16,426 nt of DNA from a virus (lineage: Duplodnaviria > Heunggongvirae > Uroviricota > Caudoviricetes), in the IMG/VR virus record IMGVR_UViG_2609459799_000005; one strand, written 5' to 3'. This document shows, piece by piece, positions 5,147 through 15,332 of this stretch (its first letter is position 1; every line of letters starts with the position of its first letter). The translations under genes were made by a program, and so were the position numbers. Under the pieces are notes generated by a model, which worked only from the letters and a program-made list of their open reading frames with translations, was not told the DNA's origin and ran no database searches.

Positions 5147-5434
5147 TCAGAAACGGTATCCGATACCAACAATAAATGCATCCGTTCGCCAGTCGCCACT
5201 ACCGGAACCTTCATAAGCGACATCAATGGCCACGGATTCGGTCGGGTTAAACTGCACGCCAGCTCCCCACGCCAGAGACGTGTTGCTGTGGCGACAGTCA
5301 TCACTTCCGGTCAGCACATCGTGCTTTTTCCCCTTGTTGTCAGTTACGCGGAGATAATCCCCGGAGAAAGTCGACACACGGCTGTAAGCCACACCCGCCA
5401 TCGCATACGCGCTGAACCATTCATTCAGCTGCGC
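5147..5434 (-). pseudogene. lom: C-terminal fragment of outer-membrane protein Lom (Ail/Lom family); N-terminal half deleted
   Basis: Frame reads ...SAYAMAGVAYSRVSTF...SLAWGAGVQFNPTESVAIDVAYEGSGSGDWRTDAFIVGIGYRF, matching the Lom C-terminus (AYEGSGSGDWRTDGFIVG). The reading frame opens only 11 codons upstream of the internal Met and overlaps the J stop. Confidence 0.7.
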
Positions 5435-7316
5435 TCACCTCCACCGTCAGGTGCTGCACTGCCGGTGGGATGACGCTGTTCAGGGAACCTGACTGCGGCT
5501 CAAAGCGGGCACCGTTATCCACGATGGCTTCTTTTTCCGGTACGTGCTGCACCGCCGTGATGGCAAAGGTGCCGTCCGTGTTTTCCCGGATGGAGACACA
5601 GCGGAACAGGCGACGGCGCAGTGACGGCAGGGAGAGTCCCCACACCCCGTATGTCTCCACACCATCAGGCAGGGTACTGACCTGTATCCGGTCCGGCGCG
5701 GGGTGTGCGGTGATGTCCACACTCACCGGCTTACCGCTGCCGTTAATCAGGTTCACCGCCGATGTACCTGTCTCCGGCAGGGTAACCTCACGGTCCAGCG
5801 TCAGGGTGCGGGTGGCAGCATCAATGGACAGGACACGTCCGCCGGTCAGGGTCCCGGCATAGTCATTATCACAGATTTCAATAATGTCACCGGGTGTGTG
5901 CCGCAGCCCCTGAGACCCGAGCGTGAAATCCACCGTCTGCGTTTCCAGCAGTTCGGTCTTTATCACCCACAGTCCGGCACGGTGGGCCTGACCGCGGCTG
6001 GTACAGCCGAACGCGTCCATCTTCAGCAGGTTGCGTCCGTAGCGCAGTATGGCTTCCGGGTCTTCCACCAGTTCCGTGGAGGTCTGCCAGCCGTTCTGCG
6101 GGTCGGTGTAATTCACCTCCACCGCCGTGTGCCGGTCCTTCAGGGCACTGAAGCTGTAGCGGAATCCCACGCCGTTATCATCCACCACCACATCGCTGTT
6201 GGTGTACGGCCACACCACATCCGACGGGCGGTCCTGAACGAACGTCAGCGTCTGACCGTTCCATACCGGCATACAGCGCATCGCAGAGCAGAAATCACTG
6301 AGAACGTCCCACGCCTTACGCTGTTGTGCCAGGTACGCATTAAAGGTCATCCGCGGCTCGGTCCCCCCGAAACCATCCGGGACCGTCTGGTCGCAGTACT
6401 GCCCGATGGCATACAGCGCCCACTTGTCCACATCCGCCGCCCCCAGACGTTTTCCCATGCCGTAGCGCGGGTGAGTCAGCATGTCCCACAGACACCAGGC
6501 CGGGTTGTTGCTGTATGCCGGTTTCAGACTGCCGTCCCAGATACCACTATACGTGCGTTTTTCCGGGTCATAGTTTGACGGCACCTGGATGATGCGACCG
6601 CGGATATGGTAGTTCACCGTCATCTGCTGGCCGCCGAACTGCTCCGCATCCACCTGCAGCCCCACAATGGCCGTGTTCGGGTAGCACTGTTTCACATCGA
6701 TGATTTCGGTGTATGACGACCACAGCGTCTTATTCTGCAGCTGGTCCGTGGTGCTGTCCGCCGTCTCCCTGACCATCCGGATGTTAAAGGGCCGGGGAGG
6801 CAGATTATCCAGAATCACCGAGGCCAGGAACTGTGAGGTGGTCTTGCCGTTAATGGTGACGTCCTTTTCTGTCACCCAGTTACCGTTACGCTGTAACTGA
6901 ATCAGCAGGCGGACGGATGCCGGGTTACGGTCACCCTTTGAGGTGGTCTCCACCAGTGACTGCACCCCGAAGGTAACCCGCAGGCGGTCAATGTTCGCGG
7001 ACGTAATGGTGCGCGTCACCGGTTTTGCCTTCGTCACTTCCACGCCCAGTCCGGTTTCAGCTCCGGAGGACTCAAAGCCTTCCGGTGGTGTCTGCTCCTG
7101 CTCCCCGGCGCGCCAGACCGCCGTCACACCGTGTATCACGGGATTGCCGTCCGTGTCCGTCAGTGGGGTTTTGTTCACCAGAATACTCTGCAGTCCCTTC
7201 ACCGGACCTTCTATCGGTCCCTCACCAATCGCATCAATCACGCTCATCATCTGCGTGGATTTGAGATTATCCTTCGCCTCACGAGGCGTGTGTGCCTTAC
7301 CGCCACCTTTTCCCAT
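5421..7316 (-). pseudogene. J: Tail tip / host specificity protein J, N-terminal 631 aa only (C-terminal receptor-binding part deleted)
   Basis: MGKGGGKAHTPREAKDNLKSTQMMSVIDAIGEGPIEGPV... is collinear with lambda J (about 1130 aa) up to ...PPAVQHLTVEV, then stops and abuts the lom fragment. Shine-Dalgarno GGGGAAGG precedes the ATG. Confidence 0.85.
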
Positions 7317-7420
7317 ACAGCCTTCCCCTGAATAAATTAACCGCCACTTGCCATTCCGTACAGAAGTCGGATATCCTTCGCCCGAAAAGCATGAAACACA
7401 TTTCTGCCATGCTAAAGAGA

Positions 7421-7448
7421 AACCCCGGTATCAGCAGATACCGGGGTT
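7421..7448. terminator. Strong 12-bp stem-loop (bidirectional terminator-like) in the I-J insert
   Basis: aaccccggtatc-agca-gataccggggtt perfect hairpin, followed by ttctttc on the plus strand and tctcttt on the minus strand. Confidence 0.5.
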
Positions 7449-7521
7449 TTCTTTCATGCCCACCGATAATCCTGTTGGTTAAAACCGGTAATGGCATAAA
7501 AATTCTGAATATCTTCACATT

Positions 7522-7549
7522 TTCACACACTGACTGTGGCGCTTATAAT
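7522..7549 (+). promoter_or_regulatory. Sigma70-like promoter candidate (TTCACA - 16 bp - TATAAT) reading toward the terminator at 7621-7654
   Basis: Near-consensus -35 and perfect -10 hexamers with a 16-bp spacer in an AT-rich insert. Predicted start site near 7556. Confidence 0.3.
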
Positions 7550-7620
7550 TTCGCTGCGTTAGTGTTTTTTTGCCCGAGTAACAAAAACAACTCCTTAACA
7601 TTGATCTTCATTTGTCTGTC

Positions 7621-7654
7621 CCCGCAGCTCCGCGATCACTGCGGGATTTTTTTA
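7621..7654 (+). terminator. Rho-independent terminator on the plus strand
   Basis: cccgcag-N11-ctgcggg stem-loop followed by attttttta. Confidence 0.55.
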
Positions 7655-7658
7655 TGTT

Positions 7659-8339
7659 TTATCCCTGTCGCCCGATAACCACGACCGTTCCGCCCCCACC
7701 TTCATCACGGGTGCTGATGTCCTGGGATATACGGCGGGAGCCAACCAGCATTTCCCCGTAAGGCACCGGCATCGGGTTCCCCTGGGCAATCATGTTATCC
7801 AGCGAGGAAAAGTACGTGTTCTGTCTGCCGTTATCCGTTGCGCGGTAATCCGGTGTTTTTGCCTTCGGGGCCAGCATCTGGGCCACACCGCCCAGAATCA
7901 TGCTGGCTCCAAGTGAAAACAGCATCGTGGTGGCAGAAAAACCACCGGCTGCCAGGGCTGAACCCCATAACGCCATTGATGCCCCGGCAGTGAAGAAAGA
8001 GCCCACGATGGCTGCCGCCCCCAGCACAATCTGCAGTCCACCCTTTCCGGCCCCGGCCAGTCGCGGCACAATATGGATGACCGTTCCCTCACCCAGCTGT
8101 TCGTGAAGACGGGCGTACACCGCCTCCGGTGCCGTGTCATAACCGGCAATACGTATCTGGTACCAGCCTTCGTTCATCTGACGGCGAAAGCCCGGCACCT
8201 GTAACGACAGCGCCCGGATGGCTTCCGCTGCCGTGTTCACATACAGGCTGAGGCGGCGGCCAAATCGTTGTAAATCCCCGTGAAGGCAGATGCGTGCCAG
8301 TGGCGGTGACGCCAGACAGAATGCGTTCGTCGTTGCCAT
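7659..8339 (-). CDS. I: Tail assembly protein I (lambda gpI-like)
   Basis: 226 aa. Conserved blocks ARICLHGDLQRFGRR, WYQIRIAG, VIHIVPRLAGAGKGG, LFSLGASMILGGVAQMLAPKAKTP and NTYFSSLDNMIAQGNPMPVPYGEM match lambda gpI. Shine-Dalgarno GGGAGAGG upstream. Confidence 0.85.
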   Translation of the reverse strand: MATTNAFCLASPPLARICLHGDLQRFGRRLSLYVNTAAEAIRALSLQVPGFRRQMNEGWYQIRIAGYDTAPEAVYARLHEQLGEGTVIHIVPRLAGAGKGGLQIVLGAAAIVGSFFTAGASMALWGSALAAGGFSATTMLFSLGASMILGGVAQMLAPKAKTPDYRATDNGRQNTYFSSLDNMIAQGNPMPVPYGEMLVGSRRISQDISTRDEGGGGTVVVIGRQG

Positions 8340-8393: not shown

Positions 8394-8885
8394 TCACCGT
8401 TGCCGCAGTAAATGGCGGCATGGTTCGGTATGGGTCTGTACCTGGCAGAGGTCATCCAGATCATCGTCACGTCGTACCATATCCCGGGCAGGGTTGAAGG
8501 CGTTGGCCGCCACCTCCACAGTCGGGGCCAGAATCGTGTAACCCGCCGCCTGCCGCCAGTTCAGTAACAGTGCAGTCATCATGATCCCCGCGGCCAGCGT
8601 GGACTTCGAGTTTTTCTTGGGGATAAGGATAAAAACTTCCTTGATATGGCGTACACCGGTCTGCGCATCGTAGGAGCCAAACAGGGCCGCCACCAGGTCA
8701 AACACCCACGGTGCACAGGACTCCCCGAACGTAGGGCTACCAGGTGCATCCACAATCCGCAGTTGTTTAAAAATCGCCAGGGCATGTGCGGCCTCGTCCG
8801 GATAAATCGGAGCCGGAATAATCGACAGCCCCTTTTTCAGGCGCTCTGCCCAGTCCGGGCAGGCTGTGCTCCATACAGGTATCAT
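8394..8885 (-). pseudogene. terL: Terminase large subunit, N-terminal fragment of about 163 aa (Terminase_1/HK97-type)
   Basis: Start overlaps the terS stop (ATGA). Contains a deviant P-loop-like segment (ILIPKKNSKSTLAAGIMMTALL) as in HK97-type TerL N-termini. The ORF ends after 163 aa, where full TerL is 450 aa or more, and gene I begins 55 bp downstream. Confidence 0.7.
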
Positions 8886-9445
8886 CCGTTGCCCTCATTA
8901 TCGTTATTCACCACCAGTCGGGGTGGCGGTGGCACCGCAAAACGGTTAGCCGCTTTTTTCGCGGCATCACCTTTTGCCGATTTTTTCCCGGTATCCCCTT
9001 TTTTATGGTGCGTGAACTGCGCCAGACGCCAGGCCGCATCCAGTGCCAGTTTCGGATCAATGCAGAGGTTTTCCACCAGGATCCGCCCCATGGCTTTCAC
9101 CGGATCGGGAAGACCATCCTCCATATATTCAATACCAGGAGACATCACCGCGGACGGTGGCATCTCCGGATTGTTTTCGTCCGGCTGTGGTATTGCAGCC
9201 GCCTCACGGCGACGGGGTTTATCCTCCTGCTCTGATTTTTTCTGCCGGTAAACAGGAACCTCATCCACCTCCACCGTCTCGCACTGTTTACGGGCTATAA
9301 ACGCGAGCACCTCCGGATCTTTTGCCAGCTGCGAGCCTTTAACCCTGGCTGTCTTCGCCGAATAACCGGCGGCAATGGCTGACGCTGTTTTGTTTTTCCC
9401 GGACATGAGCGCCAGCGCAAATTTTCGTTTTTGCGTTGTCAGCAC
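8882..9445 (-). CDS. terS: Terminase small subunit (Terminase_2/P27-type, N-terminal HTH)
   Basis: 187 aa. N-terminus MLTTQKRKFALALMSGKNKTASAIAAGYSAKTARVKGSQL... fits the conserved TerS signature (L-T-x-KQ-x-F ... A-A-x-x-AGYS-x-K-T-A). Immediately followed by terL. Confidence 0.75.
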   Translation of the reverse strand: MLTTQKRKFALALMSGKNKTASAIAAGYSAKTARVKGSQLAKDPEVLAFIARKQCETVEVDEVPVYRQKKSEQEDKPRRREAAAIPQPDENNPEMPPSAVMSPGIEYMEDGLPDPVKAMGRILVENLCIDPKLALDAAWRLAQFTHHKKGDTGKKSAKGDAAKKAANRFAVPPPPRLVVNNDNEGNG

Positions 9446-12884: not shown

Positions 12885-14594
12885 TTATATACGCCCTTTC
12901 AGATAAGTCATCCCCGGCTGCATCCAGTCAACAGGTGCTTTCTTAAAGGGCGTATTCCCGAACTCGCCCAACTTTGTGTTTCCTGCTTTCTTGTGATGCA
13001 TCAGATTCAGTTTGCCGTCTGTGGTCTGGGTGAAGAACGACATCAGGAACGGGTTACCAGTCCCGGTCATCGCCACGACGTCAGGTAACGCTACATCGGT
13101 ATACAGATAAATTCCCAGACCGAACTGGTTGTTGGTCAGTGCGCCTGACAGTCGAAACTTACAGCTCAGTCTGCCACCCCGTGTCAGCAGGGAGACTGCG
13201 TCATCCACCGGGCGCGTCAGGGACCAGGCTTTATTGCTCTGCTTGGTGATCTTAAATACACCATCTGACAACTGAATTCCGCCATTCTTAATGCTCCAGC
13301 CCTGCGCAGCAGCATCTCCGGCTGTCGGCAACAGGGAGATTGTGCGTACGGATGCATCTTCAGACGGCCCCGATGGCGTGTCGCCGCCGGGCGAGGGTTT
13401 GATTTCCGGTGCCTTACCACTAATGAAGGCTAAGGTGCGACCGGCTACGTTCAGAATAGCAGTTGCCATACGATCGGGAATAATGCCACGACGCGCCCAT
13501 GAGCTGAAATGCGTCGGGCGATTTGATGATACCCAGTTTTTGTTCGTTCGGGATGCCGAACCGTAATAACCAGACCCGACAATATCAGGATCTTCTGACG
13601 GGTTGTTTGTCGGTGTATTAACTCCGCTACCATCGGTCATAAAGGGAACAAAATAAATCTGCTGGGATTCTTTACCTTTATATGCACCATATACCACTTC
13701 ATATTGTGTACCGTGTTCTTGTTTCCACGCGTATGTCGTGTCGCCACAAATCCAGGGGACTGATGCCGGACTTCCACCGTGACACTGCGCCGCCAGCCCG
13801 GCAAGGTCAGCACGGAACTGCTGTACCATTGCAAGAAATGCTGCTGGCTGCTGGGCGTAACTGGCATTCTTCATATCGAATTCCCCCTGCATCCAGCATA
13901 TCGCCAGCAAAACGTTTTTCGGGTTTTTCTGCAATGCTGCCTTCGTGCGGAAAAGCAGATCCTGATATAACGGCTTACCCACTCCCCAGCGAGCCGAATC
14001 CTGACTGGCCCCCGTGGACTCGCTGAATGTCCCCTCCGTGCCCTGGGTGAATGCCGAACCACCACGACAGCATGGTACCAGCAGGATCCCCGCATTATTA
14101 GGGATATACGGAAGCAGTTTTTTGGCAATATGTAAGCCCTGTCCGACACAGCCGTACTGCCCTTTGCTCAGGTCAGCCCGGGGATGGTTAATCGTACTCA
14201 TATCCTGAACATCATGCAGACAATGGTCAGCAGGAATGATGTCGTTAAATACGCATACTTCACCACCGGGAGTCACTGTGTTACGACGGGCCAGTTGCTT
14301 AATGCGCGGATGGGGCGCATCGTATGAATCCGGAAGCGGAAGCCCTTCACCGTAAGCCATGGCATTAGACTGCCCGGCCAGTACGATGACGTAGTACCAC
14401 TCCGGCTCAGTTGCACCACTGACGACCACATCACCTTCTGCGACAATCGCCTGAATAAGTGCTGCGCCATCATCCGTATACGAAGAAAACGGCCCGCCGT
14501 ATGGTTGCCATCCTTCACGAATTTTTTGAGCAAGTGCATCAGCAAGGTCTGACGGCGATACCGCCCTGACAACATCATAGTGTTTAAATGCCAT
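12885..14594 (-). CDS. nanS: Prophage sialate O-acetylesterase (NanS-p-like; N-terminal DUF1737-like region plus SASA/SGNH-type esterase domain)
   Basis: 569 aa. YYVIVLAGQSNAMAYGEG carries the GQSN catalytic-serine motif of 9-O-acetylesterases. Position between the tRNA module and the lysis genes mirrors nanS-p in EHEC lambdoid prophages. Confidence 0.8.
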   Translation of the reverse strand: MAFKHYDVVRAVSPSDLADALAQKIREGWQPYGGPFSSYTDDGAALIQAIVAEGDVVVSGATEPEWYYVIVLAGQSNAMAYGEGLPLPDSYDAPHPRIKQLARRNTVTPGGEVCVFNDIIPADHCLHDVQDMSTINHPRADLSKGQYGCVGQGLHIAKKLLPYIPNNAGILLVPCCRGGSAFTQGTEGTFSESTGASQDSARWGVGKPLYQDLLFRTKAALQKNPKNVLLAICWMQGEFDMKNASYAQQPAAFLAMVQQFRADLAGLAAQCHGGSPASVPWICGDTTYAWKQEHGTQYEVVYGAYKGKESQQIYFVPFMTDGSGVNTPTNNPSEDPDIVGSGYYGSASRTNKNWVSSNRPTHFSSWARRGIIPDRMATAILNVAGRTLAFISGKAPEIKPSPGGDTPSGPSEDASVRTISLLPTAGDAAAQGWSIKNGGIQLSDGVFKITKQSNKAWSLTRPVDDAVSLLTRGGRLSCKFRLSGALTNNQFGLGIYLYTDVALPDVVAMTGTGNPFLMSFFTQTTDGKLNLMHHKKAGNTKLGEFGNTPFKKAPVDWMQPGMTYLKGRI

Positions 14595-14815: not shown

Positions 14816-14820
14816 GTCCA

Positions 14821-14845
14821 TAAGAAAGCCCCTCCGGAGAGGGGC
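14821..14845 (-). terminator. Rho-independent terminator on the minus strand downstream of the tRNA module
   Basis: gcccctc-cgga-gaggggc, followed on the minus strand by tttctta. Confidence 0.5.
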
Positions 14846-15082
14846 TGGAGAGTGGCGCTATGTGCCATTGCATGGTGCCGGGTGCCTCCCGGTGAATTCA
14901 GTACCAGCACCTGAATCCGCGATTATCCCATATACCTACTCGCTGATTGCCCCTCCGCACAGGGGGATTCACCATGCCAGTTTCTTTTAACAAACTCCCC
15001 GCAAAACAGACAACTGTCAACCGTCTGAATTGTGAGACATTTAAAAAAAAGGCCCGCAAAAGCGAGCCAGGGAAAATAAGTG

Positions 15083-15159
15083 TGGCGCGTTGTACTGGAT
15101 TCGAACCAGTGACCGATTGCTTAGAAGGCAATTGCTCTGTCCGGCTGAGCTAACAACGC
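15083..15159 (-). tRNA. tRNA-Arg (anticodon UCU), phage-encoded
   Basis: Manual fold: acceptor GCGTTGT/ACAACGC, D-stem GCTC/GAGC, anticodon stem ATTGC/GCAAT with loop CTTCTAA, T-arm ACTGG-TTCGAAT-CCAGT, discriminator G, encoded CCA. Confidence 0.85.
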
Positions 15160-15172
15160 ATGATGCAGATAA

Positions 15173-15249
15173 TGGACCGCCATCGGGGACTCGAACCCCG
15201 CGCAACCAGCTTCGAAGGCTGGCGCTCTATCCTGATGAGCTAATGGCGG
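15173..15249 (-). tRNA. tRNA-Arg (anticodon UCG), phage-encoded
   Basis: Manual fold: acceptor CCGCCAT/ATGGCGG, D-stem GCTC/GAGC, anticodon stem CCAGC/GCTGG with loop CTTCGAA, T-arm CGGGG-TTCGAGT-CCCCG, encoded CCA. C1:G72 and a U discriminator are unusual. Confidence 0.75.
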
Positions 15250-15256
15250 TATGTGA

Positions 15257-15332
15257 TGGTGGCCCTTGCTGGATTTGAACCAGCGACCTGGCGATTATGA
15301 GTCGCTCGCTCTCACCACTGAGCTAAAGGGCC
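15257..15332 (-). tRNA. ileZ: tRNA-Ile2 (anticodon CAU, lysidine-type), phage-encoded
   Basis: GGCCCTTTAGCTCAGTGGTGAGAGCGAGCGACTCATAATCGCCAGGTCGCTGGTTCAAATCCAGCAAGGGCCACCA is very similar to E. coli tRNA-Ile2 (ileX). First gene of the three-tRNA module found downstream of Q in Stx-type lambdoid phages. Confidence 0.85.

Follow-up and report, generated by a model that had tools for sequence, protein, structure and literature searches.

The I–J tail-gene gap of a defective lambdoid prophage holds a match to pasB, a known gene for an Hfq-dependent small RNA

We describe the intergenic gap between the tail assembly gene I and the host-specificity gene J in IMG/VR virus record IMGVR_UViG_2609459799_000005 (Caudoviricetes), a stretch of 16,426 nucleotides (nt) that was analysed as a whole and is termed the window below. 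The element in question is a gene on the plus strand of this gap that, judged by its sequence, corresponds to pasB, which specifies the small RNA (sRNA) PasB of lambdoid prophages. Genes I and J both lie on the minus strand (Table 1), and gene I has the same length as in the PPompW phages. The gap between them is 342 bp long and has a G+C fraction of 0.44–0.47, compared with 0.56–0.62 in its flanks, and thus agrees with the AT-rich insert of about 340 bp reported in a first-pass annotation that had been made from the letters alone. That annotation had also recognized, antisense to the tail operon, a near-consensus promoter and a hairpin with a T-run (7621–7654), and both stand: the promoter matches the sigma-70 consensus at 11 of 12 positions in a scan that returned three promoter-like sites in 1.4 kb where 0.8 were expected, and the terminator was found both by a motif scan (near 7629–7645 plus T-run) and by folding. 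It stops 5 nt short of the gene I stop codon and is convergent with the tail operon. The promoter and the terminator are unlikely to be chance features because at least 50 distinct relatives retain both, as found in the comparison of related I–J junctions that had been proposed as a check.

The gap itself is common. It is present at its full 342 bp in 1445 of 5426 complete Escherichia coli genomes, 870 of them with at least 99% identity, and no annotated feature lies beneath the match in any listed record from these 1445 genomes. In BLAST searches against phage genomes 13 records, most of them 'PPompW' prophages, contain the entire gap at 100% identity, and its right half (7493–7658) recurs at 74–99% identity in about 130 further Shiga toxin (Stx)-type and other lambdoid phages. 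The premise of the first-pass annotation that I and J are normally contiguous does not hold for this phage group, as every one of the 10 aligned relatives has an I–J gap of about 240 bp with a PasB-like promoter–terminator unit. What is peculiar to the window, as far as the alignments indicate, is the alternative and longer J-proximal module and not the presence of a gap.

Table 1. Features of the I–J gap and its two flanking genes in the window (position 1 is the first letter of the window).
Feature	Position	Strand	Description	Basis
Gene J, host specificity	5421–7316	minus	N-terminal 631 codons, truncated	Pfam FNIII-A_GpJ and Phage-tail_3
I–J intergenic gap, long form	7317–7658		342 bp	Open reading frame list and Pfam
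J-proximal long-form module	7317–7492		176 bp	Absent from the E2348/69 and Sakai gaps
Weak promoter-like site (speculative)	7348–7377	plus	TTGCCA-18-TATCCT	9 of 12 consensus matches
Perfect 12-bp hairpin	7421–7448		Stem 7421–7432/7437–7448, T-rich on both sides	
Invariant upstream block (putative CRP site)	7501–7522	plus	AATTCTGAATATCTTCACATTT	Resembles TCTGA-N6-TCACA
Sigma-70 type promoter	7522–7549	plus	TTCACA-16-TATAAT; −35 at 7522–7527, −10 at 7544–7549	Consensus scan, 11 of 12
Predicted extra 5' segment of a primary transcript of about 98 nt	7556–7570	plus	GCGUUAGUGUUUUUUU	Inferred; start site expected about 7 nt past the −10
pasB gene body, probably the PasB-2 allele	7571–7653	plus	83 nt	As annotated in E2348/69
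Likely seed, PasB nt 21–40	7591–7610	plus	UCCUUAACAUUGAUCUUCAU in the window allele	Predicted duplexes; unpaired in all folds
Allele-defining base, PasB nt 27	7597	plus	A in the window, C in E2348/69	Sole mismatch
Rho-independent terminator and Hfq-binding 3' end	7621–7653	plus	Stem 7621–7627/7639–7645 (7 bp, G+C), U7 at 7647–7653	
Gene I, tail assembly	7659–8339	minus	226 amino acids, intact	Pfam PF06805 Lambda_tail_I, E 2.3e-16

The identity of the plus-strand unit follows from an alignment of the window with the genome of enteropathogenic E. coli O127:H6 strain E2348/69. PasB, or E2348CN_0006, is an Hfq-dependent sRNA from prophage PP6 of that strain (PMC8550237; 10.64898/2026.05.13.724894), and its entry in table S6 places it on the minus strand of NC_011601.1 at 1466343..1466261 as an RNA of 83 nt between E2348C_1436 and E2348C_1437 and antisense to both (PMC8550237). 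Positions 7571–7653 of the plus strand of the window are identical to this interval at 82 of 83 nt, and the identity continues upstream of the PasB body, across the promoter, to about 7493. The E2348/69 locus is flanked by genes for a 'tail assembly protein' and gpJ in the same layout as in the window, with I and J on one strand and the RNA on the other, and the published Northern probe for PasB, AATCCCGCAGTGATCGCGGAGCT (PMC8550237), is reverse-complementary to about 7628–7650 on the window's plus strand. The RNA gene of the gap is, on this sequence identity, the already known pasB and not a new element. The two loci share promoter, terminator, strand and the slot between I and J, and differ in that the window gap has 342 bp rather than 240 bp, that nt 27 within the seed is A rather than C, that an unrelated module of 176 bp, with another hairpin, takes the place of the J-proximal 75 bp of the E2348/69 gap, and that the host prophage of the window is heavily deleted. 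The first-pass prediction of a prophage sRNA is thus borne out, the unit being a match to an RNA confirmed by Northern blot in E2348/69, and so is its prediction of an antisense plus-strand transcript, except that the length of about 100 nt put forward for it corresponds to a predicted 98-nt form and not to the annotated 83 nt.

The single mismatch bears on which allele the window carries. E2348/69 does not have the most prevalent PasB sequence, and a variant named PasB-2 is defined by a single change at position 27, the base being left unstated (10.64898/2026.05.13.724894). The window allele most likely is PasB-2, since its only difference falls at position 27, the agreement being one of position, which the preprint supplies, and not of base. 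In our sample of viral contigs the PasB body of the window occurs 15 times and that of E2348/69 six times.

The Rfam covariance search that had been suggested for 7317–7658 gave no match at the gathering thresholds, the best sub-threshold score being 27 bits against a threshold of 48, and the sub-threshold matches are terminator look-alikes. Rfam 15 has no PasB model, and it was the literature on PasB that identified the sRNA. Other candidates were considered and rejected. The anti-sRNAs AgvB and AsxR (RF02702 and RF02703) resemble PasB in being short, Hfq-bound, prophage-encoded and convergent with the late genes, and in having a 5' part that varies and a 3' part that is conserved, but their genes occupy the moron site downstream of PR' near stx and not the I–J slot, the gap matches neither Rfam model, and they act as sponges of sRNAs, whereas the PasB partners in table S5 include no sRNA or other non-coding RNA (PMC8550237). 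EcOnc10, EcOnc11 and EcOnc12 were also considered as I–J sRNAs, and EcOnc10 maps instead to the lysis region of Sp12. A type I toxin–antitoxin system is rejected as well, in that the small open reading frame (ORF) opposite the RNA has lost its start codon in four of 10 relatives and its frame is not kept.

On Northern blots of E2348/69 PasB appears as a band of the expected size, its stability depends on Hfq, and it is more abundant in overnight static lysogeny broth (LB) than at mid-log phase in Eagle's medium (PMC8550237). Relative to the wild type, the hfq mutant shows log2 fold changes of −6.8 and −2.4 in the two conditions (PMC8550237). In RIL-seq, which ligates and sequences interacting RNAs, PasB ranks 15th among all RNAs, with 258 chimeric fragments under the activating and 1820 under the non-activating condition, being the second RNA in 99–100% of them, and its 37 distinct partners include 30 coding sequences or 5' untranslated regions (5'UTRs) (PMC8550237). 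The window unit has the features by which RIL-seq defines an sRNA gene, namely a promoter of its own and a Rho-independent terminator with four or more residues in its U-tract, and the U-tract listed for PasB in table S5 is 7 (PMC8550237).

PasB has relatives that were described under other names. EcOnc22, EcOnc23 and EcOnc24 are sRNAs recovered by crosslinking and analysis of cDNAs (CRAC) with Hfq from prophages Sp15, Sp14 and Sp11 of E. coli O157:H7 Sakai, and EcOnc22 runs at about 85 nt on Northern blots and is destabilized without Hfq (PMC4104026). The EcOnc Hfq-binding peaks lie within the I–J gaps of Sp15 and Sp14, and a 23-nt core of the shared EcOnc22/23/24 probe has an exact reverse-complement match on the plus strand of these gaps (L011 and L012) at the position homologous to the PasB seed. 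The full 33-nt probe, machine-read from the PDF, has no match within three mismatches, and the remainder beyond the core is a text-extraction or design difference. On the strength of the peaks and of the probe-core match we place PasB and EcOnc22–24 in one family occupying one slot. They share the I–J position, the orientation, the invariant upstream block, the −10, the UUAAUCUUCAU motif and the terminator CCCGCAG/CUGCGGGA-U7, and differ in that the identity is about 74% over 166 bp and that the EcOnc genes have another 5' body, 8 nt shorter, and lack a good −35. Table S6 gives no homologue of PasB in enterohaemorrhagic E. coli (PMC8550237) and 'EcOnc' appears nowhere in the preprint (10.64898/2026.05.13.724894), so that the link between PasB and EcOnc22/23/24 is stated in neither Pas paper and appears to be contributed by the present analysis.

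The family was followed in a gap alignment of the 10 phages, derived by BLAST, and in 51–59 distinct units from viral contigs. Its members have a constant order of parts: the invariant block, the −10, CUGCGUUA and a U-run, a variable body rich in AAC and AAU, CUCCUUA, UUAAUCUUC(A/G)U, and the terminator CCCGCAG...CUGCGGGA followed by U7. In distant members the terminator stem is kept by compensatory change, as CCCACAG/CTGTGGG in contig L019 and as CUCCCGU/ACGGGAG in a paralogue, and all folded variants have the 3' hairpin with its U-tail and an unpaired seed. RNAalifold applied to 51 variants found the terminator as the only conserved structure and none in the 5' part. Four viral contigs (L014, L029, L055 and L069) carry two tandem PasB-like units in a single I–J gap, the upstream paralogue differing both in its seed (GACUAUUCGU) and in its terminator (CUCCCGU.../...ACGGGAG). 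In another contig (L060, at about 5771, in minus orientation) the end of an IS3-family element, presumably IS629-like, interrupts the PasB promoter spacer directly after TCTTCACATTTTCACAAACTGA.

The slot can also hold other cargo. Sakai prophage Sp10 has a sodC moron in its I–J gap, likewise transcribed against the tail operon, and a PasB-like body and terminator persist downstream of it; the difference is that the PasB promoter has given way to this Cu/Zn superoxide dismutase gene, which brings a terminator of its own. The remaining PasB-like body lies just past the sodC terminator (L154, 48485–49335) and could be released as a 3'UTR-derived RNA. Sp10 had been considered as a Sakai carrier of the long-form gap and was rejected, as it sits at ttcA and not at ompW and its gap holds sodC. 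As to the range of the family, an exact-pattern scan of species-representative genomes, which gives a lower bound, found E. albertii and two tiny contigs of unrelated assemblies. The former agrees with the reported range of PasB, which is Escherichia and Shigella (10.64898/2026.05.13.724894). The two contigs, of 460 bp from Parendozoicomonas haliclonae (L155) and of 3.4 kb from Streptomyces flavalbus (L157), match exactly from promoter to terminator and are most likely E. coli or phage contamination of the assemblies.

The −10 reads (T/A/G)ATAAT or TATCAT in all 10 aligned relatives, and the invariant columns upstream of it are TTCTGAA and TCTTCACATTT, arranged as TTCTGAA-NN-TCTTCACATTT (7503–7522 in the window), such that only two central bases vary among relatives within the 22-bp block at 7501–7522. 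TTCACA is present twice, as an invariant copy at 7514–7519 and as the copy at 7522–7527 that lies 16 bp from TATAAT and is found only in PasB-type variants, and the invariant block is by this alignment distinct from the −35. Read as AAT-TCTGA-ATATCT-TCACA-TTT, the block resembles the consensus site of the cAMP receptor protein (CRP), with its variable positions inside the central spacer. Control by cAMP-CRP would fit the higher level of PasB in overnight LB than in the glucose-containing medium. The centre of the block is 32.5 bp before the −10, 3 bp longer than the 29.5 bp of class II promoters, and it would be at −61.5 were 7571 a true start site, so we offer the block as a lead, one that may prove to be a CRP site.

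We examined which part of PasB could contact its partners, by predicting duplexes between its unstructured 50 nt and eight RIL-seq target regions, with shuffled controls. Among the partners in the non-activating condition are E2348C_2648 (71 fragments), napF.5UTR (70), map (67), hflX (55) and fabR (50) in table S3, the napF.5UTR chimeras being significant in three of three libraries (PMC8550237). Over the eight regions the paired PasB positions concentrate at nt 21–40, a likely seed that includes the family-conserved blocks CUCCUUA and UUAAUCUUCRU, and the targets that clearly beat their shuffles are napF (z −3.1), map (z −2.5), gshA (z −1.9) and caiF (z −1.7). In the predicted napF duplex, PasB nt 23–39 (CCUUCACAUUGAUCUUC) would form 16 contiguous pairs, one of them G·U, with GGAAGGUCAAUGUGAAG, a stretch that in napF takes in the Shine-Dalgarno sequence, the GUG annotated as start codon and the second codon, at −26.6 kcal/mol or, on a wider target stretch, −29.3 kcal/mol. 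Occlusion of the napF Shine-Dalgarno sequence and start codon would thus be the best-supported single interaction of PasB. In the window allele the A at nt 27 is predicted to lie opposite the G of the napF GUG; nt 27 falls inside this duplex, which places the allele difference in the seed, and the target strengths of the window allele probably differ from those of the E2348/69 RNA. Pairing with napF was considered as a property of the whole family and rejected, as only the PasB-type variants stand out.

Taken as a whole, it is our firm expectation that the I–J gap carries pasB as a free-standing sRNA gene of lambdoid prophages whose product is Hfq-bound and acts in trans. Its expression, size, Hfq dependence and chimera partners were established by others, and its identity in the window, its conservation and its architecture come from this analysis; the seed, the napF mechanism and the 98-nt precursor are what we infer here. 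Transcription would begin at the gene's own sigma-70 promoter, run opposite to the tail operon and end at the intrinsic terminator, to give the published 83-nt RNA by way of a predicted primary form of 98 nt. PasB would bind Hfq through the terminator and the U7 tail, and its single-stranded region of about nt 21–40 would pair in trans with mRNAs from both the core genome of the host and mobile elements. On napF it would block initiation and so repress translation of the periplasmic nitrate reductase operon.

Several points weigh against this account. Expression and stabilization by Hfq are demonstrated for E2348/69 and the Sakai relatives only, what the Pas sRNAs do 'has not been elucidated' (10.64898/2026.05.13.724894), and the literature gives neither a phenotype nor a regulated target for PasB. 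Four of the eight tested targets are indistinguishable from shuffled controls, the napF duplex of the window allele is predicted at −22.9 kcal/mol, about 6 weaker than −29.3, and pairing with napF is not family-wide (median z −0.75 over 49 variants). The published 5' end at 7571, which derives from coverage and from Northern size, is moreover 22 nt past the −10, where about 7 are expected. The resulting 15-nt gap between the predicted (about 7556) and the published end points to processing or to an imprecise coverage-based end. As CUGCGUUA and the following U-run of the predicted 5' segment are conserved across the family, the conserved GCGUUAGUG-U7 between 7556 and 7571 suggests a processed precursor, and cleavage in the U-run would be a plausible way to reconcile the 98-nt and 83-nt forms.

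The remaining explanations concern mostly the J-proximal module. It is nearly invariant in 43 viral-contig loci, in which it is joined to several different PasB bodies, and hence the I–J gap is mosaic; this long form is the commoner gap context in E. coli. The 12-bp perfect hairpin that the first-pass annotation had noted upstream of the promoter is indeed there and is strong (−28.7 kcal/mol on the plus and −32.5 kcal/mol on the minus strand, z about −6.8, with none of 200 shuffles as good), only it belongs to this module and not to the sRNA, and would be an intrinsic-terminator-like structure that works in both directions. The 240-bp gaps of E2348/69 and Sakai have another hairpin in its place, CAGGCA(C/T)CC-loop-GG(G/A)TGCCTG, with a T-run on the strand of the tail operon and a compensatory C-G to T-A change. 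Either hairpin could serve as a terminator for the tail-operon strand, which leaves room for the control of read-through into J that the first-pass annotation had offered as an alternative. One could argue that the gap serves mainly in cis control of the late operon, a terminator before J stopping transcription that is not Q-modified and an antisense RNA modulating the read-through, processing or stability of the J message. In its favour, both forms of the gap place a strong hairpin and a tail-strand T-run, unrelated in sequence, between the pasB promoter and J, the compensatory change in the short form preserves its stem, and the position of PasB gives it full complementarity to the I–J spacer in the late transcript. 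Late transcription in lambdoid phages is, however, antiterminated by Q, and the Q-modified polymerase disregards such terminators. No minus-strand promoter-like site is present in 7300–7800, even at eight of 12 matches, the PasB chimeras in RIL-seq are mostly with unlinked mRNAs, and the window prophage, which lacks head genes and has a truncated J, has nevertheless an intact pasB unit. There is also a natural variant without the hairpin: contig L110 has a long-form gap with the same PasB body as the window, from which the hairpin at 7421–7448 has been cleanly deleted between two TTTCT repeats, so that the hairpin is dispensable for retention of the locus. We consider cis control as the main role improbable; it is, at the same time, compatible with a role in trans.

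It is still less probable that the left module (7317–7492) encodes a second plus-strand sRNA of about 70 nt, running from the promoter-like site at 7348–7377 to the hairpin at 7421–7448 and its U-run. In its favour are a site with nine of 12 matches that precedes a very strong terminator-like hairpin of this strand by about 45 nt, the precedent of the tandem sRNA-like units in the gaps of L014, L029, L055 and L069, and the near-invariance of the module in 43 loci. But this promoter is weak and of a kind expected by chance at such stringency, the hairpin is equally good on the opposite strand, near-invariance yields no covariation signal, no published sRNA maps to the left module, and the Rfam matches are sub-threshold and terminator-driven. 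That the gap encodes a small protein, either from a minus-strand ORF of 22 amino acids at 7543–7611 (MKINVKELFLLLGQKNTNAAKL) or from a plus-strand ORF of 128 amino acids at 7292–7678, can practically be dismissed: the ORFs exist, the shorter one has a Shine-Dalgarno-like GGGGA upstream and its first eight codons look conserved, but its ATG is ACG in four of 10 relatives, its length ranges from 15 to 41 amino acids and its frame breaks after about nine codons, indels in the family are not multiples of three, no gap ORF has a Pfam or PHROG match, and what looks like conservation belongs to the sRNA seed of the opposite strand, the start of the ORF being the reverse complement of the conserved AUCUUCAU. 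The small ORFs on both strands were accordingly rejected as genes, and the first-pass annotation had likewise seen no convincing ORF in its predicted transcript.

The pasB gene of the window resides in a defective prophage. On the minus strand, from high to low coordinates, the window has three tRNA genes, STnc100, a sialate esterase gene, genes for lysozyme and Rz, terminase fragments and then gene I. The fragments of the small (187 amino acids) and large (163 amino acids) terminase subunits at 8394–9445 stand almost directly before gene I, which means that the head genes are missing altogether and the tail genes for the most part. At the other end, J stops at codon 631, where relatives have an intact J of 3474 bp (1157 amino acids) followed by lom, and lom is absent from the window as compared with the relative L153. 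None of the 5426 complete E. coli genomes shares this exact layout, in that no colinear match covers more than 80% of the 16.4 kb. The pasB unit is identical to that of complete phages, and its intact state in a decayed prophage fits the remark that PasB is often located where neighbouring phage genes have decayed (10.64898/2026.05.13.724894). A typical neighbour of PasB is IS009 (10.64898/2026.05.13.724894), and the window has an IS009 match in Rfam at 1284–1482 on the minus strand (223 bits, threshold 117) within a tail fibre assembly gene (1241–1825). The STnc100 match (139 bits) is in the region 14816–15332 on the minus strand beside the tRNA genes, which are Met-CAT (ileZ in the Sakai annotation), Arg-TCG and Arg-TCT, and downstream of them is a gene for a NanS-type sialate esterase (12885–14594); this stretch is the usual moron region between Q and lysis of Stx-like phages.

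Our analysis presented herein shows that pasB, an experimentally validated gene, is missing both from Rfam and from the annotation of the listed RefSeq records, so that it will go on being found anew. The new points are modest, namely the link between PasB and the EcOnc22/23/24 family, an allele difference inside the probable seed and a concrete target site in napF, to which the unexplained invariant upstream block may be added, and they leave the classification as known PasB unchanged. A wider reading can be put forward tentatively, and it is unlikely to hold in all of its parts jointly: the I–J gap would be a dedicated and fast-evolving sRNA cassette, of which PasB and EcOnc22–24 are alleles, with an invariant control block (possibly for CRP), a hypervariable 5' body and a semi-conserved seed, diversifying by seed changes such as that at nt 27, by tandem duplication and by moron replacement as with sodC, in which PasB and PasB-2 would shut down napF and the tail-strand terminator would keep J dependent on Q. 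If true, the cassette would tie a prophage remnant to the anaerobic respiration of its host in the gut.

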